In this document: one piece after another, positions 898-31,316 of the stretch
Layout: every line of letters starts with the position of its first letter
Numbering within the stretch: position 1 is the stretch's first letter
Assembly: GCA_036405175.1 (NCBI GenBank)
Contig: DASWYC010000002.1
Span: forward strand, 251,429 to 315,428
Source: Minisyncoccota bacterium
Lineage (GTDB): Bacteria; Patescibacteriota; Minisyncoccia; Phycocordibacterales; UBA1006
DNA: 64,000 nucleotides
Reading direction: 5' to 3'
Program-made: the position numbers and the translations under genes
The notes under the pieces: generated by a model
Databases searched by the model: none
The model's input: the letters and a program-made list of their open reading frames with translations, nothing else
Told to the model about the DNA's origin: nothing

Positions 898-2214
898 ATG
901 GGCGTTACCCCTTTAGCTGTTTTAAAAAAGTTTTCAACTCTCGAGGCTTCTCCTAACTGGTCATTTTCGGAATATCAGCGTATAGATACAACAATGATGA
1001 GTCATAGCTATCATCGTTATCCTGCAAAATTTATCCCACAATTAGTCGATAAATTAGTCGATAAATATACAGAGGAGGGAGATACTGTGTGTGATCCGTT
1101 TGGCGGATGTGGCACAACACTAGTACAGTCAAAAATTGTTGGTCGCGAAAGTATTGGTTTCGACATCAATCCTGTAGCCAAATTAATTACTGATACAAAA
1201 ACTCGGGCGATAGATCCAAAGAAGCTAAATCGCATAAGAGAAGTTTTTATTAAAAAATATGAACAGTCTCAACAAAGAAAAAAAGCTTTTGTGCATAGCG
1301 AACGAATCTATTACTGGTTTGATGAGAAGATTGTTTTAAAGCTGGATGTGATATATTCTCTAATTTTAGATATTACCGATAGTGAAACGCGAAGATTTTT
1401 CCTGTGTGCATTTTCTCACATTCTAAAGAACTGCTCAAGATGGCTAATGAAGAGTATTAAACCTACCATTGATCAACATAAAGAGTTTCCAGATCCAATA
1501 AAGGTCTTTTTAAAACACCTTAACTCAATGATAAAAAAGAATGAACTCTTCTACAACTCTCTCAAAGATTCAGGGTGCTTAAAAACTCCTGCTAAGATGC
1601 AGCTGTGGAATTCTACAAAAAAGTTACCTTTAAAAAATAGAAGTATCGATCTTATCGTTACTTCACCGCCTTATGTAACTTCTTATGAATATGCTGATCT
1701 ACATCAGTTGTCGCTTTTATGGTTTAGTGAAGATAAAAAGCATTTTAAAAAATGGGATAAAGTAATGAGCAGATTCCTTGATTTTAAAAAACAATTTATT
1801 GGCAGTAGCCATAAAAAAAAGATTGCAAATAGGGAATTTAAGAGTAAGATTGCAGAAGACATAGTCTCAAAGCTTGAAATTCAGAATTCCGCACTTTCGC
1901 AGAGTGTAGCTAGCTACTTTGATGACATGAGAGCATCATTTAGTGAGATGTACCGAATTCTGAAAAAAGGCAAAAAAGCGTGTGTCATTATAGGTAATAC
2001 CGAACTGCTAGGAATCCCCATATTAAACGCCGAGGTAGCAACGGAACAGATGATAAATCTTGGATTTACTAAGTCAAAAGTTATTAAAAGAGAGGTTTTA
2101 AATAAGATGATTACTCCTTGGCGAGATAATAAGACAGGTAAATTCACAAGTCAATCTAATCCTAGCAAAAGACGAGCTTACGAATATGAATATATCTTAC
2201 TCATGGAAAAATAA
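898..2214 (+). CDS. DNA methyltransferase, N4-cytosine/N6-adenine family (SPPY type)
   Basis: The AdoMet-binding motif DPFGGCGTT sits near the N-terminus, preceded by HRYPAKFIPQLV. The catalytic motif IV is IDLIVTSPPY, about 190 aa downstream. The ORF is 438 aa. Confidence 0.75.
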   Translation: MGVTPLAVLKKFSTLEASPNWSFSEYQRIDTTMMSHSYHRYPAKFIPQLVDKLVDKYTEEGDTVCDPFGGCGTTLVQSKIVGRESIGFDINPVAKLITDTKTRAIDPKKLNRIREVFIKKYEQSQQRKKAFVHSERIYYWFDEKIVLKLDVIYSLILDITDSETRRFFLCAFSHILKNCSRWLMKSIKPTIDQHKEFPDPIKVFLKHLNSMIKKNELFYNSLKDSGCLKTPAKMQLWNSTKKLPLKNRSIDLIVTSPPYVTSYEYADLHQLSLLWFSEDKKHFKKWDKVMSRFLDFKKQFIGSSHKKKIANREFKSKIAEDIVSKLEIQNSALSQSVASYFDDMRASFSEMYRILKKGKKACVIIGNTELLGIPILNAEVATEQMINLGFTKSKVIKREVLNKMITPWRDNKTGKFTSQSNPSKRRAYEYEYILLMEK

Positions 2215-2225
2215 AAAATACTCTT

Positions 2226-4097
2226 ATGAACTCTTTTAATCTAGATGAGCTCAAAAAGGAGACAGTGAATAATAATCGATACGAGCGACGACTGGCAAAA
2301 CTCATTTTAGCCAATCAACAGGTTGATCGCATCAAGGGTGTCATTGAGAATGCCGTGATTAACATAAAAAGAGGACAAAAATCTTTTGTTATCTATGGAG
2401 AACCTCAAAGTGGTAAGACCGAAATGATGATAGCTCTTACAGCAAAACTTCTAGATATAGGAGTAAAGATCGTTATAGCATTATTAAATGACAGCGTACA
2501 ACTTCTTGATCAAAACCTTGAACGCTTCCAAAGATCTGGACTCTCTCCCTCTCCCAAGAAATTTAGCGAGGTTTTATCGCCAGAGGTTAGTATAAAAGAT
2601 CATCAGTGGGTAATTTTTTGTAAAAAGAATTCAAGTGACCTACAAAAGCTATTACATAAGCTGCAAGGACATTCTAGCAGGGTAATAATCGACGATGAAG
2701 CTGACTACGCAACACCAAACTCAAAAGTTAATAAGCAAGAAAAAAGTAGGATTAACGAACTTACTGAAAAACTAATTGGTGCTGAGGGTATATATATTGG
2801 AGTTACAGCAACGCCAGCTCGTCTAGACTTAAACAAAACTCATGCAAACCAAAATGAGCATTGGATTGATTTTCCAACGCATTCAAACTATACAGGGCAG
2901 GATGTGTTTTTTCCTATTTCTATTGATAATATACCCTATAGACTAACTTTTTTACCAGATGCGGGCGATAATCCAAAATACATGCGAGATGCAATCTTTA
3001 GTTTTATTATTAATGTATCTTACTTAAATACCTCAGTGAATGATCCTGAAAGAAATTACTCTATTTTAATTCACACCAGCAGCAAAAAGGCCGACCATAC
3101 GGTTGACTACAAGCAGGTCATCAAAACTTTTGAAGCACTTAAAGACGACTCTGACCCTAATCATGAGATTTATTTTAAAAGAATTTGGGATATCGCAAGC
3201 GAGCGCTATCCTGATCGCGTAAATGAAATTACTAAGTATGCAATTGCAAACTGTGATCGCAATAATATTGTTGTAATGAATAGCGATAAAGAAGTAAATG
3301 CGGCGGATAATCGTACAGCAACTGACCCCACTGCTCCGTTCACGATTATCATTGGAGGAAATATTGTTTCTCGTGGGGTAACCTTTAATAATCTATTATC
3401 AATGTTTTTTACTAGAGACGTTAAACATAAATTACAACAGGATACGTATATTCAAAGAGCCCGAATGTTTGGATCACGAGGTGATTATCTAAAATACTTT
3501 GAGTTAACGATTCCTAAATCCTTATATTTAGATTGGCAAAAGTGTTTTATTTTTCATAGACTCTCTCTTGAATCCAGAAAACAAGATAAACGTTCTCCTG
3601 TTTGGCTAGACGGACAAAGAATTACAGCAGTAGCAGGGGCAAGCATAGATAAAACGAGTGTGGTTGTCGACCGAGGAGAAATGAGTTTTCAGTTGTTTGA
3701 ATTTGACAAAGATAATATTTATGAAATATTAGGTCAAGATATAAAACCAATCAACAAAGTAAAAGCTCTTTCTGAGTTGTTAGGAAAAGATTGCCTGCCT
3801 GATTACCTAATAAGCTACATAGAAAGCTTTACCCCTGCTGGGAATAATTCTCTTATCATTCATGAACCTAAAAATATTTCTGGATATAAAGATAAAAAAG
3901 AGGAGAAGGAAATCACTGATACCAACTCTGTGTTTAGAACAAAAGGTTTTATTGGTACAGGTGAACTAGAAAAAGGGAAATACCCTGATGCAGTTCATCA
4001 TATTTTTATTTTATTCAACGACATCAACAAAGCTCGCATGTTTTATAAATACGATGGCAACATAAGATTCCTAAAAACTCCAAAAAAGTATGATTAA
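2226..4097 (+). CDS. SF2 helicase-like P-loop NTPase, putative restriction/defence subunit partnered with the upstream methyltransferase (Z1-domain-like by recollection)
   Basis: The P-loop is GEPQSGKT, the DEAD-like Walker B is VIIDDEADY and a TAT motif III (GVTATPARL) is present. The start lies 12 nt after the methyltransferase stop on the same strand. Confidence 0.5.
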   Translation: MNSFNLDELKKETVNNNRYERRLAKLILANQQVDRIKGVIENAVINIKRGQKSFVIYGEPQSGKTEMMIALTAKLLDIGVKIVIALLNDSVQLLDQNLERFQRSGLSPSPKKFSEVLSPEVSIKDHQWVIFCKKNSSDLQKLLHKLQGHSSRVIIDDEADYATPNSKVNKQEKSRINELTEKLIGAEGIYIGVTATPARLDLNKTHANQNEHWIDFPTHSNYTGQDVFFPISIDNIPYRLTFLPDAGDNPKYMRDAIFSFIINVSYLNTSVNDPERNYSILIHTSSKKADHTVDYKQVIKTFEALKDDSDPNHEIYFKRIWDIASERYPDRVNEITKYAIANCDRNNIVVMNSDKEVNAADNRTATDPTAPFTIIIGGNIVSRGVTFNNLLSMFFTRDVKHKLQQDTYIQRARMFGSRGDYLKYFELTIPKSLYLDWQKCFIFHRLSLESRKQDKRSPVWLDGQRITAVAGASIDKTSVVVDRGEMSFQLFEFDKDNIYEILGQDIKPINKVKALSELLGKDCLPDYLISYIESFTPAGNNSLIIHEPKNISGYKDKKEEKEITDTNSVFRTKGFIGTGELEKGKYPDAVHHIFILFNDINKARMFYKYDGNIRFLKTPKKYD

Positions 4098-4566
4098 AGA
4101 ATTTGAATTTTTTCACGGATTAGTATTCGCAAGAATACTCCACGGAACTCAGCGGCCACTTTCTTTGAAGCCGTTTCCATCTGGATCAAATGCTTCCTAT
4201 ATAATCAATGAAAAGACTGGTATCTATATCAAATACTCTAGCAAAAGAATGACACCTTGGAGGTTTTCTTTTGCAAAGCAACATCAAGAAGAGATTGAGT
4301 TAATGAAAAGTACATTGAAAGAAGTTTATCTACTACTGGTTTGTAATGATGATGGAGTTGTATGTTTGAATTATTCAGAACTTAAACAAATACTAGACGA
4401 TCAGCATGAGGCAATTGAATGGATTAGCGCCAATCGTCACAAAAGAGAGATGTACACGGTCAAAGGATCTAACGGAGAGTTGGGCTTTAAAATTGGTCCA
4501 AATGATTTTCCTGGAAAGCTATTCGATGTAGATGCCCCTAAGGGAATACTCGGATGGTTTAAATAA
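4090..4566 (+). CDS. small protein, possible PD-(D/E)xK nuclease component of the R-M-like module
   Basis: The start overlaps the upstream stop by 8 nt, suggesting translational coupling. LLLVCNDDGVVCLNYSELK fits a D-x11-E-x-K restriction-endonuclease-like core. Confidence 0.3.
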   Translation: MIKEFEFFHGLVFARILHGTQRPLSLKPFPSGSNASYIINEKTGIYIKYSSKRMTPWRFSFAKQHQEEIELMKSTLKEVYLLLVCNDDGVVCLNYSELKQILDDQHEAIEWISANRHKREMYTVKGSNGELGFKIGPNDFPGKLFDVDAPKGILGWFK

Positions 4567-4605: not shown

Positions 4606-5364
4606 ATGAAACCAGCAATCTATTCAGACATTAAAGAAAAGGTGGTTCTTGTTACCGGAGCAGCACGCGGGATGGGTAAAGCTATTGCTTTGGCATTTGC
4701 TCAGCAAGGTGCACATTTAGTAATTAATGATTTACCTGAGCGCGCTAAACTACTCAATCAAACGGCTCAAGAGATTATAGATCTCAATATGAAAGTTGAA
4801 GCACTGATTGCCGATGTTCGCCTAGAAGATGACATTAAAAAGCTTATTTCAACAGCTCTTGCCACATACGGACGCATTGACGTACTCGTTAACAATGCAG
4901 GTATTGCGTACGATAAAGATTGGGAAACCAAAACCAAGGACGAGTGGCATGATACCTTGGATACTAATTTGATTGGACCATACTTGCTGATCCGTGAAGC
5001 TCGTGAGGCACTTATTGAATCAAAGGGAAGTGTAATTAATATCACGTCAACAAATGCATATAAAGCAATGAGTGCATTCTCGCTTGATTACGATGCGTCA
5101 AAAGCAGGACTCATTACCTTAACGCACAATACTGCTTCTGGACTTGCGCCGCATGTGCGCGTGAATGCTATAGCTCCTGGATGGGTGAATACGGATATGA
5201 ATAGCGAACTTCCACAAGAATTTATTGATCAAGAAACCAAGAAAGTATTTGCAGGAAGATTTGCTGAACCTGAAGAAATTGCATCAGTAGCTGTCTTTCT
5301 TGCATCTGATGAAGCGCAATATGTAAATGGTGCAACAATTACCGTTGATGGTGGGTATCAATAG
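4606..5364 (+). CDS. short-chain dehydrogenase/reductase (FabG-like)
   Basis: The Rossmann motif is VTGAARGMGKAIA, followed by NNAGI and the catalytic YDASK (YxxxK). Confidence 0.8.
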   Translation: MKPAIYSDIKEKVVLVTGAARGMGKAIALAFAQQGAHLVINDLPERAKLLNQTAQEIIDLNMKVEALIADVRLEDDIKKLISTALATYGRIDVLVNNAGIAYDKDWETKTKDEWHDTLDTNLIGPYLLIREAREALIESKGSVINITSTNAYKAMSAFSLDYDASKAGLITLTHNTASGLAPHVRVNAIAPGWVNTDMNSELPQEFIDQETKKVFAGRFAEPEEIASVAVFLASDEAQYVNGATITVDGGYQ

Positions 5365-6219: not shown

Positions 6220-6624
6220 TTACGTGCCCATGAGCTCAAGTACACCTGTTTTCATTTCGGTAATTTCATAAAGAACTTGCGCTCCGTCATAAAACCCTTC
6301 GATTTCGCCATACTCGCCGGTTTTAATATCTTCAAAATATTGAGCATTCTCTGGGGAAGCTATCAATACAATCTCTGTTGATGGCCACACTTCTTTTACC
6401 GTGAAGGCTTCTATGTTGCCGTTAACAATAAGCGCATCTGGTATAAACACAACATCCGGGTGCACTTCGCGTGCGTAAGCATTGGCAATCTCTGTTGGTT
6501 TAACGACTTCTACGTCAAATTTTTTACCAAGAAACTTACCAAGCTCTTTGGCAGTTTCTTTGAGTAAAGGATCCTTGGGATTGAGAACCCAACCGTTGTC
6601 TATAATATAAATACGTTTTTTCAT
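6220..6624 (-). CDS. hypothetical protein with Rossmann-like N-terminus
   Basis: The ORF was trimmed to the internal Met (MKKRIYIIDNGW). No recognisable catalytic motif was seen. Confidence 0.4.
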   Translation of the reverse strand: MKKRIYIIDNGWVLNPKDPLLKETAKELGKFLGKKFDVEVVKPTEIANAYAREVHPDVVFIPDALIVNGNIEAFTVKEVWPSTEIVLIASPENAQYFEDIKTGEYGEIEGFYDGAQVLYEITEMKTGVLELMGT

Positions 6625-6727
6625 CGAACTGGAGGTTAAATTAATGTATATGTTTATTGAAAAGTACCACCTGACTTGAGGCATGTCAAACACGGCACAA
6701 TAAGCTAAATCATGCTAAAATCAGCTC

Positions 6728-7954: not shown

Positions 7955-9157
7955 ATGAAAAAAATCTTATGTTACTGCTATCGGAAATTCTTTATACTCG
8001 TATTTATTGCGAGTCTGGGAATCTTTCAAGCTATATGGGAATATGGCAAGAAACCCGAGCGAAAAACCTGGGAAAATACTTTTGAAATACCGCCGGGTAC
8101 TGACCGTTTTAATAACGGTCGGATGTTTGGTGACTTCTGTAATAAGAAGCTTTCAAAAGCTAATGAAAACTTTCATAAAGGCATTCCGTATTCGCCTTAT
8201 ACATGCTATAAGGATTTACGAGAAATTGCACTTTTAAAGAAAGCTCTGGGTATTTTACAGCCCGCACCGCCACACCTTATTACCTTAATGCATGAGGGCG
8301 TCCGGTCAGGTAAATATACCTATAAAGATGTAGCTAAGGCGTATGCAATGTATATGCCCGAAACGTACAATGAAAGAAAGAAGCGCACATATCAGGGTGA
8401 TGTTTGGATTGATATGTCTTCATGGTTATTGAAGATGTATCTAAAAATGTTACCATGGGCTTTCTTGCTGCTCTTAATATGGAATTATGAAAAGAATGAA
8501 TCTTCATCGTTCAAGATTAAGAGTCCTCTTGGTTTTTTCGTTTCGCTGTTAGGGTATCCAATAGTATTAATTATTGTTGCATACCGATGGCTACACTTGA
8601 AACAGCGCTTCTTTGAGGCCTCAGTAGAAATGCGCAGAACACGAGACAACATGCTTGAGCTTTTGTCAGAAGAGGATATACAACTCGCCTGGCGGTACGC
8701 TCACAGTAAAATACGCTTGCAAGATCTGCGCCAAATTCATGGGCGTGCCCTTAAACACTCATTTGGTGCTGCATGGATCGCCACGGTCATCATTACCGTT
8801 GCCCCACAAGCAATCGAGTCTACAGCAACTATGATAGTGGCATATGATGTAGTTATTACAACAACCCACACTTGTTGTTCAAAGAGTAGGCAGTCAAAGG
8901 CGCCACCGGATTTTCTGTACACCGTGTACAAAGATAAAGAAATACCTTCTTTTCTTGTTTACGATATGGAGAGTTTGGAAATTACTAAATATTTGAAACA
9001 TTTTTTTAAAGACTTTGAATCACGGATATTAAAAGGATTTACACGATCTCTTGAGTCTGTGCCGTTATATGGATTAATCTCTGCATTAGGATTAATCACA
9101 TATAAACTCAAAATCAATGAAAAAAATAATCATATTAGCAATAACTTTTTCTGCTGA
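7955..9157 (+). CDS. hypothetical membrane protein (weak)
   Basis: This is a long ORF with hydrophobic segments. It has no motifs and odd composition, so it could be a degenerate gene. Confidence 0.25.
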   Translation: MKKILCYCYRKFFILVFIASLGIFQAIWEYGKKPERKTWENTFEIPPGTDRFNNGRMFGDFCNKKLSKANENFHKGIPYSPYTCYKDLREIALLKKALGILQPAPPHLITLMHEGVRSGKYTYKDVAKAYAMYMPETYNERKKRTYQGDVWIDMSSWLLKMYLKMLPWAFLLLLIWNYEKNESSSFKIKSPLGFFVSLLGYPIVLIIVAYRWLHLKQRFFEASVEMRRTRDNMLELLSEEDIQLAWRYAHSKIRLQDLRQIHGRALKHSFGAAWIATVIITVAPQAIESTATMIVAYDVVITTTHTCCSKSRQSKAPPDFLYTVYKDKEIPSFLVYDMESLEITKYLKHFFKDFESRILKGFTRSLESVPLYGLISALGLITYKLKINEKNNHISNNFFC

Positions 9158-25344: not shown

Positions 25345-26007
25345 ATGATAAATAACCCTTCTGCGAAACAAATTCTTATCTATGGAGATTCTCTCGTGTA
25401 TGGTAAAAAACCTTCGGTTCCAGAACGATTTGATAGTGCTACGCGATTCACCGGTATCATCCAAGAACTTCTTGGTAATAATTTTAATATTATTGAGGAA
25501 GGGCTTCGCGCTCGCATGTTAGTAGGAGAGAATGTATTTTTTCCAGAACGAAACGGACTTGAACAATTTGGTCCAATTTTTGGAAGTCACGTACCACTTG
25601 ATTTAGTAGTGATTATGCTCGGTACTAATGATGGAAATAGTGGACAACATAGAACAGCAGAAGAGTACGCATCAACTCTTGGAAGCTATCTTGAAAAGAT
25701 ATCTACCTGGTGCACAAACCTAGGAATTCCAACTACTCCAAAAGTTTTACTAGTAGCCCCACCGCACATGCAGGCTTCAGAAATCGCTCAAGATACTGCA
25801 CTTACTAAAATATTTGGCGAAGCAGCAGAACAGAAGAGCAAAGAACTTGCTCCTATTTATGAACAGTTTGCACGAGAAAATAACATTGCATTTTTTGATG
25901 CTTCAACCGTTTGCAAAAGCGCATCAGGTGAAGGTGTTCATTTAGATATAGAAAATAATAAGTTGCTCGGTGAAGCATTAGCACGTAAAATTCAAGAACA
26001 AATATAA
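25345..26007 (+). CDS. SGNH/GDSL family hydrolase
   Basis: Block I is ILIYGDSLVYG, block III is GTNDG and the C-terminal catalytic histidine is in GVHLD. Confidence 0.7.
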   Translation: MINNPSAKQILIYGDSLVYGKKPSVPERFDSATRFTGIIQELLGNNFNIIEEGLRARMLVGENVFFPERNGLEQFGPIFGSHVPLDLVVIMLGTNDGNSGQHRTAEEYASTLGSYLEKISTWCTNLGIPTTPKVLLVAPPHMQASEIAQDTALTKIFGEAAEQKSKELAPIYEQFARENNIAFFDASTVCKSASGEGVHLDIENNKLLGEALARKIQEQI

Positions 26008-26010
26008 TTT

Positions 26011-26757
26011 ATGGAACAGAAATTCAATCTACTTTTAGAAGAAGTAAAAAATGACCCCAATATTCTTGGCTTTTGGTTGAGTGGATCTCGGGGTAAAGGA
26101 CTTATCACGGAAAAATCAGATTACGATTGTGTAATCCTTGTAAAAGATGAGGTATTCACTGATTATAGGGAGAAGTTTAAGGAGCGTGAAGATGAAAACT
26201 TTGAATTTTTTATAAAAACAATGCAAACATTTCAAGATCAAACAAAATGGGGATCTGACCAGCGGTGGAATAGATACAGCTACACACATGTTAAGCCATT
26301 AGTAGACAAGACAGAAGGAGAAATTGAAAAACTATTTGCAGAAGTCTCAGTAATTCCTCCCGATAAGATAAAAGAAGTAGTTTCTGGTTACCTTGATGCC
26401 TATATTAATCAAATATACCGCTCTCTTAAGTGCTTACGAGACGGGAATCTAATTGCTTCTCATCTAGAAGCATCCGAATCAGTGTCATTTCTTATAAGCG
26501 CCTTGTTTGGATTGGAAGGACGTCTTAAGCCTTACTATAAATATATTCAGTGGGAATTAAAAAATTATCCTCTTAAGGATTTACCGTGGAGTACCGATGA
26601 GTTTCTGGAAAAAGTTATCAGAATCCTTAGCTCTGGTGACAAATCTACTCAGCAAGAAGTTTTAAAATCAATTGAACCAATCTTTAGAGAAAATAATTAC
26701 GGAGGAGTATTTGATGCATGGAAAGAAAAACTTATGTGGATGAAAACTTATAATTAG
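26011..26757 (+). CDS. nucleotidyltransferase-domain protein (ANT(6)/AadK-like)
   Basis: GFWLSGSRGKGLITEKSDYDCVILV fits the GS...D.D minimal nucleotidyltransferase motif. Confidence 0.45.
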   Translation: MEQKFNLLLEEVKNDPNILGFWLSGSRGKGLITEKSDYDCVILVKDEVFTDYREKFKEREDENFEFFIKTMQTFQDQTKWGSDQRWNRYSYTHVKPLVDKTEGEIEKLFAEVSVIPPDKIKEVVSGYLDAYINQIYRSLKCLRDGNLIASHLEASESVSFLISALFGLEGRLKPYYKYIQWELKNYPLKDLPWSTDEFLEKVIRILSSGDKSTQQEVLKSIEPIFRENNYGGVFDAWKEKLMWMKTYN

Positions 26758-26763
26758 GAACTT

Positions 26764-27468
26764 ATGCATTCTATTCACTCTACAATCCTCAAAGAACTTA
26801 AAGATCCTAAAAATCAAAAACCCTCATCATGGGATACAGAGAGCTATTTGTTGAGCGGACACACATATTATGGCGTTCCAGTGCCAACACGCCGTAAAAT
26901 CGCAAAAATGTGGCTTAGGGAGCATTCTAATCTTTCAAAGAAAGAATTCTTTGATGCTATAGATACACTTATGAAAGGCGATTCTCATGAAGAGAAAACA
27001 ATTGCCGCAATACTCCTTGAATATTCACCAGAAATGCGTAAGACTGTAACATTTAAACAACTCAACGAATGGCTTAATCATCTGGTTGGTTGGGCAGAAA
27101 TTGATGCGCTATGTTCTGGGACTTTTAAAGCAGAAGATTTTATGATCGACTGGGATGGATGGAAAACATTTATTCAAAAACTTGTTAAAGATAAAAATAT
27201 TAATAAACGGCGGGCAGCCTTGGTATTTTTAGTCTATCCAATTCACTACATCTCCAACCCCGACATTGCTCAATTTAGTTTTGAAGTTATTGAAGAACTC
27301 AAACACGAAAAACCAATTATTATCACCAAAGCGATCTCATGGGTTCTGCGAAGTGGAGTAGGGCATCATACGGAAGCAATTAAAAAGTATATCCAACTTA
27401 ATCAAGATACTCTTCCTAAAATTGCTATTCGCGAAACAATACGAAAGATTGAAACGGGGAGAAAATAA
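26764..27468 (+). CDS. DNA alkylation repair protein (AlkC/AlkD-like HEAT-repeat fold)
   Basis: YLLSGHTYYGVPVPTRRKIAKMW is followed by a helical repeat architecture. Confidence 0.5.
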   Translation: MHSIHSTILKELKDPKNQKPSSWDTESYLLSGHTYYGVPVPTRRKIAKMWLREHSNLSKKEFFDAIDTLMKGDSHEEKTIAAILLEYSPEMRKTVTFKQLNEWLNHLVGWAEIDALCSGTFKAEDFMIDWDGWKTFIQKLVKDKNINKRRAALVFLVYPIHYISNPDIAQFSFEVIEELKHEKPIIITKAISWVLRSGVGHHTEAIKKYIQLNQDTLPKIAIRETIRKIETGRK

Positions 27469-27515
27469 AAAGCATGCAATTTTTATTTGCATGCCAGTAA
27501 ATGGTTTTTCTTGGT

Positions 27516-27905
27516 TTATTTTTTATAAGCTATTTTTTCAGGATTTAACAGTAAATATTCAAATCCTTTAGCTACGGCAGTAATCCAGAGGATAATGCCT
27601 GAACCCCATAGAGTGTATGCGGTCCAGTACGAGTTACCAGGATGCCATGAAACTATAAAAAGAATAATTCCAACGACCAATGTGATTCTCGAAAATAAGG
27701 TAAAGATAGCAAAGGTGGACATAAATAAGAAGAATAGAATACTTATTATCGGCACCATAGGTATGAATATCTTTACAATGCTGCAGAAGATAAAAAGAAA
27801 GAAAGCGCTTAAGAGAACTTTGATCCAAATACCTAACAGGATTTGAAAATATTTTCTGATCTTTCGACCAAGAAGATACGAATATACTTTTACAAGTTTT
27901 TTCAT
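27516..27905 (-). CDS. hypothetical 4-TM membrane protein
   Basis: Hydrophobic helices only. Antisense ORFs inside it were ignored. Confidence 0.35.
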   Translation of the reverse strand: MKKLVKVYSYLLGRKIRKYFQILLGIWIKVLLSAFFLFIFCSIVKIFIPMVPIISILFFLFMSTFAIFTLFSRITLVVGIILFIVSWHPGNSYWTAYTLWGSGIILWITAVAKGFEYLLLNPEKIAYKK

Positions 27906-28008
27906 TAATAAAGAATGTTTTGATTTGAATTACAGAGTATCACACAAGACTGATACGTCAAGAGGTAAGGGGAGAGTAGCGTGGGGGTTATGGTATACTT
28001 TTTAGACT

Positions 28009-28266
28009 ATGGCAAAGTCTCAAGAATCTGAAACATTACTTCACACATCTAAAGGCGGACGTGTGATGGGTAAAAAATATAATGAAGACCAAGAACGCAA
28101 CGTAGCGTTGTACACGCTTCATAAACTTGATCCGCATACCTATACCGCTTATTTGCTTGCTAAGATCTTTCAGCGTGATCGCAAGACGGTCTACGATATC
28201 ATCAAACGACTTCGTACTCTTGATGATGCTGGTGAGCTTTCGGGTAATTCATTTTTAAATGAATAA
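28009..28266 (+). pseudogene. transposase-like N-terminal HTH fragment (IS630/Tc1-type helix-turn-helix), probable IS remnant
   Basis: LLAKIFQRDRKTVYDIIKRL is HTH-like. A 40-codon +1-frame continuation follows (MLYLKKADTALAGKSHSNPLKQERAYF...), then stop-rich sequence. Confidence 0.3.
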
Positions 28267-28811
28267 AAAATGCTGTACCTCAAAAAAGCGGATACAGCAT
28301 TAGCCGGGAAGTCTCATTCTAATCCTCTCAAACAAGAGCGAGCATATTTTAAGTCCCTATTAGCCATACGCTCTGACTTCACCTGGTAGAACATAGCCTA
28401 TCATACTTTTCTTAAATGAGTAATGTATCGTCTCTATTTTTACGTAACGTACCGTGGGGGTTATAGAGGGAAATTACAAGAGAGGAAATTATACATAAAT
28501 TAAATAAGATGTAGATATGTCTATAAGTAGAGCGTTACCATAGGAGATATTAGTTATTAGATAGTATTCAAATGAAACCGACAGAAGCCAAAGCCGGCCA
28601 AACAGATTAGACAATGGTGCAACGGGCGTTATTTCATGGCTTCTGTGTCGCAAAAGATATATTGTACGACATTCAAGAATCCCTAAAGATGAAGAAGTTT
28701 TCCACATACGCTTTACCAGCTATTGACACTACCCTGTCATCACATATTCCAAAAGTTTGGTCGCAATTAATATATTTAGATAATTACATAATTAATTACT
28801 TAATAAAAAAT

Positions 28812-28843
28812 CCCTATGATCAAGCGGTCATAGGGATTCTAAA
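28812..28843 (-). terminator. intrinsic terminator of the 28881-29345 minus-strand gene
   Basis: atccctatga tcaagcgg tcatagggat has a 10-bp stem. On the minus strand it is followed by TTTTTTATT. Confidence 0.5.
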
Positions 28844-28880
28844 TTACAATTTTGTTAAAAATCTAAACCTGTCTTATTTG

Positions 28881-29345
28881 TTATCCCCTCACCTGAGGGG
28901 AATACTCTTGCTCAAACACAAGAATGTAAATTTCTTCTTTTTTTCTTTCCTGTATTTTTTTATGATTCTTCTTAGTATCTGGTCTCCAGATAGGGCGACT
29001 TTCTTGCCAATCTGCATACGTATACAGCGTAAACAAAAATACTGCCGAACTGGCTAAGGTAACCATAGAGTCAAAGAACGGCACTGTTCTGGTAGCGCTT
29101 CTATCCAGAGGGATTATTCCAATAAATCGGATTATTAAATAACTTGCAAAGATCATTGGAATCGTAAATATAATCTTCCTCATTCCCAAACTCTGCTCAG
29201 CTGCAAATTGAGCAAACTGAGTATTGTAAAAACTTTGGTAAAGAGCATGAAAGACAACACTCCCAGATAATAAGGCCATCGTGAGTCGGATTCCGTAATA
29301 AAAGATTGCAGAACCACTATTTTGAATTTTATGTAGTGATAACAT
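28881..29345 (-). CDS. hypothetical multi-pass membrane protein
   Basis: It has TM helices and a terminator immediately downstream. The overlapping +strand ORF 28614-29057 is judged spurious. Confidence 0.45.
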   Translation of the reverse strand: MLSLHKIQNSGSAIFYYGIRLTMALLSGSVVFHALYQSFYNTQFAQFAAEQSLGMRKIIFTIPMIFASYLIIRFIGIIPLDRSATRTVPFFDSMVTLASSAVFLFTLYTYADWQESRPIWRPDTKKNHKKIQERKKEEIYILVFEQEYSPQVRG

Positions 29346-29556
29346 CGCAAGGAGGTTTTAGGTTGTATTGTTAAAAAGAGTATATTTATTTTAAATAATA
29401 AGGGTATTATGTCAATCCCTACAAATTACTATAAAAAGTTATCAACATTTCTTCATCTTCCCTCTTGCAAATATAAGAAAGTTTGTAATAATGTCGTCAA
29501 TCAGTTTATTTTATACTTATCGCTGATTTTTTATTAAGTAGTATTTACACGACACC

Positions 29557-29838
29557 ATGACAACATTAGTTGATGACACATTACATCTTGGATATATCTT
29601 TGCCACAGGCGAAGGAGACGATACCACTACCGATTATCTAGAGACAGAGGAAGAATCAGATACCACATATAAACCAGTGGATCCTCGACATGTTCCTCAA
29701 GAAGATAGATTTGGACTTGGACTCGTTGGCGATTCAGAAGATGAATCAGAGGAAGAACCTGGTTCTGATGATTTATTGGAAGAATCAGAAGAAGACGAGC
29801 TTGATGGCTTTGGAGAAGAAAGTGAGGATAATTACTAA
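29557..29838 (+). CDS. extremely acidic small protein (93 aa, D/E/T-rich)
   Basis: DDTTTDYLETEEESD...DSEDESEEEPGSDDLLEESEEDELDGFGEESEDNY has a very high negative charge. Confidence 0.45.
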   Translation: MTTLVDDTLHLGYIFATGEGDDTTTDYLETEEESDTTYKPVDPRHVPQEDRFGLGLVGDSEDESEEEPGSDDLLEESEEDELDGFGEESEDNY

Positions 29839-29963
29839 GTTTCTACCCTAATACAAAAACACAGCAAATGCTGTGTTTTTGTATTAGCCCAATTACTCAT
29901 TTAAGAACCAAGACTTCATAACATAAAATTCGCCCAGTTTCCTAGACGAATTTTATGAAAAGA

Positions 29964-30098
29964 TTATTTTTTTGAAGTCTTTTTTGCAGCTTTCTTTACT
30001 GCTTTCTTAGCAACCTTCTTGGTAGCTTTTTTAACAGCTTTCTTTACTGCCTTCTTTGCAGCCTTCTTTACTGCTTTCTTAGCTTTTTTTGCAGCCAT
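29964..30098 (-). CDS. 44-aa lysine/alanine-repeat histone H1-like/Hc1-like basic protein (not in ORF track, below the 60-aa cutoff)
   Basis: Hand translation gives MAAKKAKKAVKKAAKKAVKKAVKKATKKVAKKAVKKAAKKTSKK*, running from ATG at 30098 to TAA at 29964-29966. Confidence 0.5.
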   Translation of the reverse strand: MAAKKAKKAVKKAAKKAVKKAVKKATKKVAKKAVKKAAKKTSKK

Positions 30099-30463
30099 AC
30101 GTTTACTTTAGTGTGAAAATAACTTGATTATATATTGCTATATAAAAGTTACGATTAGCTTAGTCGACCGCATGAAAGTATAAATGGTCGATAAAGGCAT
30201 TTATTCTTCATGTGAATATATTGTATGAATAATTTTTTATACTAACAAGATAAAAGGCTGTGTATAACTCAATTTGAAATAAAAATATGCAAATGATTTG
30301 CAAAAGCGCTTTTGCTACTTTTTAGCACTTCTCTTCCCTATTATAAACTTTTTTGTAAAACTCAACTTTCTTTTTACGTCTTTTAAACTTTGACTTCTTC
30401 TTATATTTAAGCTATAAAAGACTAAGTTTAAACTTAATATGTAACAAAAAACCAATTATCATA

Positions 30464-30838
30464 ATGCAGGTACCTGATATGAAAGTCATTCTACTGGGAG
30501 GTATTCCTCAGTATGTAGAACAAGTATCTAAGATTTTTAAAGAGAATAGTCGGAAGATCTTAGATATCATCCTGGAAGTAACCTTTAGCGATATTGTTGA
30601 AGAAGAACCTATTCCGGGCGGTATACGGTGGACACTTTGTTCCCATATAAATCCCAGTCGAGACAGAAGAGTCATGATCTCGTTCTTCTATACAGGAGAA
30701 ATATCTATGGTGCCAACTTCTTCTTTAGAGACAACGGATGAATCCTCTGAAACAACGCTTCGTTACAAGACCAGTTTCGTACGCGAAATGGTAAAGTTCA
30801 TGGCGGACGTTATGTCTATTCTCTATCCTTCTGGATAA
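30464..30838 (+). CDS. hypothetical protein upstream of rpmA
   Basis: No motif. MKVILLGGIPQYVEQ weakly resembles an L21 N-terminus, but this is not sustained. Confidence 0.35.
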   Translation: MQVPDMKVILLGGIPQYVEQVSKIFKENSRKILDIILEVTFSDIVEEEPIPGGIRWTLCSHINPSRDRRVMISFFYTGEISMVPTSSLETTDESSETTLRYKTSFVREMVKFMADVMSILYPSG

Positions 30839-31008
30839 GTCCTAATACTTACGGAAGCCTCTTTACGAGGCTTTTTCTTATAAAAGATATATTTTATAGC
30901 ACATTTCTCCGCCATACAGCCGGTTCCTTGTACTAGGCGGTGCTTATTTGCAAAATACCCCATATCATGGTATTATTTGCCCACAGTAACGTATTTATAT
31001 AAATCACT

Positions 31009-31281
31009 ATGGCACATAGAAAAGCGGGGGGAACAGCGAGAAGCTTTAGAGATTCTAATCCTCAGTACCTCGGAACCAAAAAATACGGCGGAGAAAAAGT
31101 ACAACCTGGAAATATTATTATTCGCCAGCGCGGTACTAAGATCCTCGCAGGAGCCAATACCGATCTTGGATCTGACCACACTATCTACGCAACCAAAGAA
31201 GGATACGTGGTATACGGAACTAAGCGTGTACAACACTTCGACGGAACCGTAAAAATCAAGAAGATTGTTTCCGTTCAATAA
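31009..31281 (+). CDS. rpmA: 50S ribosomal protein L27
   Basis: [31 protein letters not shown]...IIIRQRGTK is a canonical L27. Confidence 0.9.
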
Positions 31282-31292
31282 TCTTCAATCAT

Positions 31293-31316
31293 AAAAGCCA
31301 CAGAAATGTGGCTTTT
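31293..31316. terminator. bidirectional terminator between rpmA and rplI
   Basis: aaaagccaca gaaa tgtggctttt forms a 10-bp stem. Confidence 0.6.

Follow-up and report, generated by a model that had tools for sequence, protein, structure and literature searches.

Does a methyltransferase gene, followed by the gene of an ATP motor and by a very small third gene, make up one restriction–modification (R-M) system in which the nuclease is a polypeptide of its own? This question is raised by positions 898–4566 of a 64,000-nucleotide (nt) stretch of contig DASWYC010000002.1 from a Minisyncoccota bacterium (the window), where three open reading frames (ORFs), coding for a 438-residue amino-methyltransferase (M), a 623-residue ATP motor (Z) and a 158-residue protein (S), follow one another on the forward strand. 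A first, sequence-only reading of the locus had taken them for an ATP-dependent restriction enzyme with a separate nuclease. The computational follow-up presented here confirms that observation in part and lends its interpretation partial support. Specifically, the association of a methyltransferase, an ATP motor and a separate small protein of predicted nuclease fold, with the genetic signature of an R-M-type system, was borne out, while nuclease activity of S is not established. All together, the data make it reasonably probable that the module is an ATP-dependent R-M-type system with Z–S as its effector; that S itself is the catalytic nuclease has, in our judgement, slightly less than an even chance.

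Gene neighbourhood of the Z–S pair

The gene neighbourhood is the strongest evidence for the module. A scan that took one genome per species returned 50 loci, distributed over phyla of the candidate phyla radiation (CPR), Gamma- and Alphaproteobacteria, Bacteroidota, Verrucomicrobiota, Nitrospirota, Thermodesulfobacteriota and one Pacearchaeota archaeon, and including the cultured isolates Hufsiella ginkgonis, Flavobacterium silvaticum and Chryseobacterium taihuense. Of the 48 loci whose sequence extends far enough, 47 have a Z homologue at most 70 nt from S, 41 have the two genes overlapping on the same strand, and 37 also include a methyltransferase of the window type. Moreover, trios with 4-nt overlaps, in the order Z-S-M (L058, L059, L063) or M-Z-S (L066), persist even for S proteins that share only about 26–31% identity with the query, and the methylases of these divergent trios belong to the same SPPY family. 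Because Z adjoins S in nearly all loci and in trios as divergent as these, we conclude that Z–S is an old, obligate unit and that the M-Z-S trio is its commonest form.

In the window, all three ORFs lie where they had been placed (Table 1). The start of S is located 8 nt inside the end of Z (ATGATTAA, positions 4090–4097), as previously read, an arrangement pointing to translational coupling; the spacer between M and Z measures 11 nt, instead of the 12 nt given before.

The surroundings of the pair vary. On two cyanobacterial plasmids the order is S-Z, and the neighbours of plasmid-borne Z–S pairs include TIR, NACHT and integrase genes, that is, a defence context. The same holds for GHKL/paraMORC ATPases, which occur at four related loci (L021, L049, L039, L066). 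In locus L064, Z–S occurs together with genes for a C5 methylase, an HNH nuclease and RmuC. In three Bacteroidota loci (L049:1617-5115, L039:1665-5115, L047:1619-5117) two extra genes stand between M and Z, coding for a 739-residue double-GHKL protein (HATPase_c_3 and HATPase_c) and a 455–471-residue protein with no Pfam match; this insert resembles the HEF_HK/response-regulator-like pairs linked to R-M systems (PMC8011034). Directly downstream of S, two of them carry a 544-residue ORF with no Pfam match (L039:7489-9123, L047:7489-9123), the C-terminal part of which, PDIILID...LLVADYKH, looks like a D...(D/E)xK nuclease motif. Finally, on a Nitrosospira contig (L038:2981-5057) Z–S lies beside a helix-turn-helix BsaWI-like restriction endonuclease and an opposite-strand beta-class PF01555 methylase, which apparently constitute a separate Type II system.

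Z is a conserved ATP motor related in its motifs to H.CglI

The three motifs singled out in Z by the sequence-only reading, GEPQSGKT, IIDDEADY (which contains DDEAD) and TATPARL (residues 194–200), are all present. The Walker A motif, DDEAD, the histidine pair and QxxR are invariant among the 47 Z homologues aligned (Table 1), and their residue numbers nearly coincide with those in H.CglI, described as having a Walker A motif with Gln replacing Gly, a DDEAD Walker B motif (D158/E159/D161), two histidines 8 residues apart (H282/H290) and a motif VI with short QxxR spacing (R408) (PMC5861437).

The C-terminal domain, of about 185 residues, contains a set of conserved residues (D475, E485, H546, R571, H591, H592, N598, R604 and Y607), and its AlphaFold 2 (AF2) model has a mean predicted local distance difference test (pLDDT) score of 65 with a confident core. 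Profile searches of this domain gave no match in the PDB, and the best Foldseek probability was only 0.23, obtained with this pLDDT-65 model. We thus rejected, for want of support from profile or Foldseek comparison, its assignment both as a nuclease and as the C-domain of H.CglI (6F1S). A phmmer search of the PDB with whole Z returned only noise. Some Z homologues are longer (727–739 residues; P0213, P0223, P0228; L045:2519-4735), and we rejected the possibility that they are Z–S fusions, since the additional length corresponds to an N-terminal domain of about 115 residues.

M is an amino-methyltransferase of the SPPY type

Membership of M in PF01555, which had been anticipated, was confirmed: an FxGxG motif I and a motif IV of the (S/D/N)PP(Y/F) form are present, and the score exceeds the gathering threshold (Table 1). 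The PADLOC model MTase_II (PDLC03322) matches M over its full length (residues 8–409, E 7.8e-52), and the sequence matches in the PDB, limited to the motif I region, are N4-cytosine and adenine methyltransferases. Motif I precedes motif IV, and the spacer of about 190 residues between them is a putative target recognition domain.

The SPPY motif noted earlier is part of a TSPPY found in 36 of 36 M sequences (that of the window and 35 from related loci), and SPPY is present in four of four very distant systems. The architecture of YPAKF, motif I and motif IV is common to all of these proteins, with FPARM in place of YPAKF in distant family members. The SPPY form is typical of N4-cytosine methyltransferases and, by analogy, suggests N4-cytosine as the target base of M.

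S is predicted to adopt a restriction-endonuclease fold

S carries the label 'hypothetical protein' in every source. Searches of Pfam, NCBIfam, PADLOC and PDB sequences, carried out both with the single sequence and with an 89-member profile, gave nothing significant, and no Pfam family matched; RecU appeared as a weak Pfam hint (E 0.1), with 3 of the 89 members matching, at best at 0.0036. The family is nevertheless large: a set of 5.8 billion proteins contains 499 close relatives, and a profile search retrieved 821 representatives at 50% identity, of which 411 had an E value of 1e-10 or lower. The conserved start MIKEFEFFHG indicates that the annotated start of S is correct, and shorter forms of 147 residues lack only the C-terminal tail. 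Small called ORFs of 85 and 66 residues, with no Pfam match, overlap or abut the 3' end of S genes of 147–150 codons (L002:6413-6670, L004:3960-4217, L001:558-758) and may be gene-calling noise or a remnant of the longer tail of the 158-residue form. Longer family members, inspected for fusions that could reveal the function of S, contain no Pfam domains. In a DPANN metagenome-assembled genome (Pacearchaeota, L015:4113-5198) an S homologue forms part of a 361-residue ORF whose remainder codes for an HD-domain protein (HD E 1.6e-4), probably by read-through into the next gene and not as a functional fusion.

The AF2 model of S (pLDDT 84, predicted template modelling score 0.83) comprises, in order, alpha(4-20), beta(26-28), beta(36-39), beta(43-49), beta(57-60), alpha(63-75), beta(78-85), beta(89-94) and alpha(95-103), followed by a three-stranded sheet at residues 111–135. 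The alpha-beta-beta-beta-alpha-beta core of the PD-(D/E)xK superfamily is present at this predicted-structure level, and the order of elements is, element for element, that of the archaeal resolvase Hjc. When the model was compared with the PDB by Foldseek, the best matches were Hjc (probability 0.97), a tRNA-splicing endonuclease (0.99), PvuII, RecU, D212, Cas4 and DpnI, that is, mostly proteins of the restriction-endonuclease fold (RE fold). Among the viral models of BFVD the top probability was 1.00; the named matches were Holliday-junction resolvases, RecU and nucleases, and every named match with a probability of at least 0.8 was an RE-fold protein. The sequence-only reading had made its interpretation depend on a nuclease-fold match for the 158-residue protein, and the model provides matches of this kind.

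In conclusion, an RE fold of S is supported by the predicted structure, not by sequence.

Candidate catalytic residues of S

The conservation of S was analysed in an alignment of 103 sequences, 26–54% identical to the query. K48 and W57 are present in all of them, and G10, D88, G89, R53, R116, P56, Y122 and G126 are invariant or nearly so. From the order of secondary-structure elements and the periodicity of the strand, and without a significant alignment, K48 would be the equivalent of K57 in Hjc. Partly conserved residues are found in helix 1 (E6, with E in 55 and D in 14 sequences, and H9 in 72) and in helix 2 (H65 in 76 and E68 in 60).

A D-x11-E-L-K element had previously been put forward as compatible with a restriction-endonuclease fold. 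Its spacing proved to be wrong, the actual residues being C85-N-D87-D88-G-V-V-C-L-N-Y-S-E97-L98-K99, that is, D87-x9-E or D88-x8-E. In addition, E97-L98-K99 lies in a predicted helix (residues 95–103), and E97 is Glu in 67 and K99 Lys in 37 of the 103 sequences. On these grounds of conservation and location, the element was discarded as the catalytic motif.

Of the E...D...(D/E)xK signature, S has only K48 and the partly conserved E6. As two of the three canonical carboxylate positions are non-acidic in the family, the nuclease activity of S is not established. The family pattern thus suggests that S either is a nuclease whose site is relocated or non-canonical, with K48 and D88 as obvious candidates for it, or has the RE fold without being catalytic. 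In the latter case, S would be a catalytically dead domain serving Z as an adaptor, a DNA clamp or a sensor of the methylation state, and any cutting of DNA would have to be done by the C-terminal domain of Z, at a composite Z/S site or by another protein. We regard this as unlikely, though the most serious of the alternatives considered here: the profile and Foldseek searches with the C-terminal domain of Z revealed neither a nuclease fold nor a nuclease motif, the minimal three-gene unit codes for no nuclease-fold protein other than S, and K48, D88 and E6 could still form a site. PD-(D/E)xK enzymes with relocated acidic residues, of the Cfr10I type, are well known.

Which component recognises the target

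Comparison of 595 pairs of systems showed that the divergence of S tracks the divergence of M (Spearman 0.38, Mantel p 0.001), despite the fact that the two genes are non-adjacent, whereas the divergence of Z does not correlate significantly with that of M (0.08–0.11). This hints at a functional tie between M and S. It could also be taken in favour of a scheme of the strict CglI type, in which S would read the sequence, given that site recognition in CglI is the task of the R protein, H being a generic motor (PMC4267653), and that small RE-fold enzymes such as PvuII (157 residues), itself among the fold matches of S, join recognition and cleavage in one protein.

Several features make this scheme improbable. 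Single S clusters pair with M clusters that share less than 45% identity with one another (S1 with M1 and M5; S4 with M1, M3 and M5; S3 with M3 and M4), which argues against sequence recognition of the R type by S. Furthermore, S is far more conserved than is usual for sequence-specific Type II nucleases, with a median pairwise identity of 57%, against 34% for M, and 821 clusters gathered by one hidden Markov model; conserved S beside variable M is a pattern nearer to Type III Res and Mod than to Type II R and M. S also has no separate DNA-recognition domain comparable to B3. Lastly, one and the same methylase family accompanies Z–S throughout, which suggests that the methylase is integrated into the system and does not act independently of it. 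We therefore hold, with moderate confidence only, that M or the assembled complex (Type III-like logic) is more likely than S alone (CglI logic) to recognise the target.

Proposed mechanism and its weighing

In the R-M-type system that we favour, M would protect the host DNA by methylating an exocyclic amino group, for which the SPPY motif favours N4-cytosine. Translational coupling would yield S in a fixed proportion to Z, to which S would bind as a small RE-fold subunit. The two proteins may then behave as a split 'Res', composed of a motor and a nuclease-fold partner, attacking unmethylated DNA in an ATP-dependent manner: the complex would hydrolyse ATP and translocate, as CglI does (PMC4267653), and S would cleave through K48/D88 or through a composite site. 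The Z–S complex, cleavage by S, protection by M and the anti-phage function are all steps that we infer.

A number of observations do not sit well with this proposal. With regard to the fold, the Foldseek matches of S in both the PDB and BFVD are weak, the best E value being 3e-3 (none reaches 1e-3) and the TM scores 0.4–0.55. The alignment of the S family with Hjc by hhalign was null, with probabilities of 0.15% against the single sequence 1HH1 and 0.7% against a 29-member alignment of the Hjc family (the Hjc query was checked against the PDB and is identical to 1HH1), and on these values we rejected a sequence-level homology between S and Hjc. With regard to catalysis, the residue two positions before K48, where ExK has its Glu, is Y46 (Y in 69, F in 13 and H in 8 of the 103 sequences) and hence non-acidic, and positions 33–36 of strand beta2, which face K48, are occupied by N/S/R/G, so that the canonical Asp is likewise replaced by non-acidic residues. 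With regard to function, the close S family was not found on IMG/VR viral contigs, and these data provide no direct link to phages. Lastly, the Z–S pairs of Pelagibacteraceae and other Alphaproteobacteria lie among housekeeping genes with no linked methylase, and the plasmid-borne pairs likewise have no methylase linked to them.

The occurrence of methylase-free pairs among the housekeeping genes of streamlined, SAR11-type genomes would suit a different role, in which Z–S is a DNA repair or recombination pair, made of a branch-migrating translocase and a Holliday-junction-resolvase-like partner, with the methylase incidental or regulatory. The best fold matches of S, the Holliday-junction resolvases Hjc and RecU, and the RmuC gene next to Z–S in L064 point in the same direction. 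The genomic context of S is, however, that of R-M, unlike the recombination context of Hjc and RecU, and we give such a role very little credence.

Horizontal transfer and composition of the locus

Z and S are 70–85% identical across CPR phyla, Proteobacteria, Bacteroidota, Verrucomicrobiota, Nitrospirota and one DPANN archaeon, that is, among unrelated phyla. As this identity is far above what vertical descent allows, it supports the horizontal acquisition suspected in the sequence-only reading. The higher A/T content on which that suspicion was based is real but modest: the GC content of the block is 0.352 against 0.386 in the window, which ranks the block in the lowest 2.5% when windows of equal size are compared (standard deviation 0.014). 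We count it, together with the mosaic combinations of M, Z and S, as further support for transfer; the three genes recombine as modules. A search for insertion scars detected no direct or inverted repeats bracketing 898–4566.

The genes on either side are those described before, an ABC-type ATPase fragment at 29–853 (ABC_tran, E 9.5e-16) and a short-chain dehydrogenase/reductase at 4606–5364 (adh_short_C2, E 9e-64). Just downstream lie two ORFs with no Pfam match, one of 157 residues on the reverse strand (6220–6693) and one of 400 residues on the forward strand (7955–9157). In a promoter and terminator scan, promoter-like sites were fewer than in shuffled sequences.

A second stretch of the window, at 25800–31300, is equally A/T-rich (GC about 0.345–0.356). 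It codes for a GDSL lipase, a nucleotidyltransferase (NTP_transf_2) and a DNA-alkylation-repair protein, followed by about 3.4 kb (27.9–31.3 kb) of small ORFs with no Pfam match. A k-mer analysis of site avoidance over positions 1–64000 showed a strong depletion of GGCC, which occurs 58 times on the two strands taken together where 141 occurrences are expected (z -8.3), and low counts of AATT and ACGCGT. We considered these depletions as a possible trace of M-Z-S activity and dismissed them as such, since they cannot be tied to the module.

Table 1. Genes of the M-Z-S locus and their conserved elements, in window coordinates (aa, amino acid residues)
Feature	Positions	Strand	Basis
M, 438-aa N4/N6 amino-DNA-methyltransferase	898..2214	+	Pfam N6_N4_Mtase (PF01555), E 3.5e-21, 76.6 bits against a cutoff of 26.7
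M YPAKF motif, aa 41-45, family signature upstream of motif I	1018..1032	+	Conserved in M alignment
M motif I DPFGGCG, aa 66-72, S-adenosylmethionine binding, FxGxG type	1093..1113	+	M alignment
M motif IV TSPPY, aa 255-259, catalytic	1660..1674	+	Conservation in related loci
Z, 623-aa ATP motor	2226..4097	+	Invariant NTPase motifs
Z Walker A GEPQSGKT, aa 58-65	2397..2420	+	Invariant in 47 Z sequences
Z Walker B DDEAD, aa 156-160	2691..2705	+	Invariant in 47 Z sequences
Z histidine pair H283/H291	3072..3098	+	Both invariant in 47 Z sequences
Z DTYIQRARMFG, aa 406-416, including QxxR (Q410-x-x-R413)	3441..3473	+	Z alignment; QxxR invariant in 47 homologues
Z C-terminal domain, aa 440-623, fold not assigned	3543..4094	+	Alignment A3 and invariant residues
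S, 158-aa protein of an unnamed family, predicted Hjc/RecU-like restriction-endonuclease fold	4090..4566	+	AF2 and Foldseek
S Lys48, strand beta3, at the place of the catalytic Lys of (D/E)xK	4231..4233	+	103/103 sequences; strand from AF2
S Asp88, beta5-beta6 hairpin (C85-x-x-D88-G89), candidate non-canonical acid	4351..4353	+	100/103 sequences

Comparison with known systems

Apart from the motor motifs described above, the module differs from CglI and NgoAVII in several respects. In those enzymes, DNA is cleaved by an R2H2 complex and cleavage depends on NTP hydrolysis by the H subunit. Their R subunit combines a phospholipase D (PLD; HxK) nuclease with a B3-like DNA-binding domain, while Pfam matches neither PLD nor B3 to S, the predicted fold of which is RE-like; their methylase is a C5-cytosine enzyme, while M is an N4/N6 amino-methyltransferase (PF01555, TSPPY). 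The gene order M-Z-S is also different, the C-terminal domain of Z has no similarity to the solved H.CglI C-domain detectable by profile or Foldseek, and the promiscuous pairing of S with divergent M proteins speaks against an R-type recognition by S.

S resembles archaeal Hjc and bacterial RecU, its best predicted-structure matches, in the order of elements and in size. Unlike a member of those families, it shows no significant sequence or profile similarity to them, the equivalents of the catalytic D42 and E55 of Hjc are non-acidic, and it has in addition the C-terminal three-stranded sheet (111–135), with the invariant R116 and Y122.

A further parallel is offered by the group of helicases defined by the motif DThhQXuRhFG (PMC2292703), which Z shares as DTYIQRARMFG. 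There, too, a conserved small gene of RE-like fold adjoins the helicase, a methylase is part of the operon and GHKL ATPases are found at related loci. Among the differences, the methylases of that group are 'mostly cytosine and rarely adenine' (PMC2292703), and the window contains no GHKL gene. Moreover, S differs from the partner described for the group in having no E-D-ExK; as it also matches no Pfam family, it probably represents a different partner family.

S would thus be a second, much more widespread partner for this motor (821 clusters at 50% identity), ranging from CPR bacteria and a DPANN archaeon to SAR11-type Alphaproteobacteria, Bacteroidota isolates and cyanobacterial plasmids. 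A very small protein, it belongs to no curated family and does not have the textbook catalytic residues. If Z–S is an active restriction complex, it would show how a minimal RE-fold subunit can be coupled to a translocase, and the module would be a compact three-gene defence system missed by annotation pipelines, in which S is always a 'hypothetical protein', with a bearing on the defence of ultra-small CPR genomes. The three cultured hosts, Hufsiella ginkgonis, Flavobacterium silvaticum and Chryseobacterium taihuense, make it open to experiment.

Type III systems differ from the module in that Res is one polypeptide, a superfamily 2 helicase with a canonical C-terminal core fused to a PD-(D/E)xK nuclease, and in that Mod is a beta-class enzyme with a DPPY motif. 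In its overall logic, the module nonetheless resembles Type III Mod and Res: an ATP-dependent, conserved unit of motor plus nuclease-fold partner lies beside a far more variable amino-methyltransferase with an internal variable region, Z and S being conserved and M variable, much as Res is compared with Mod.

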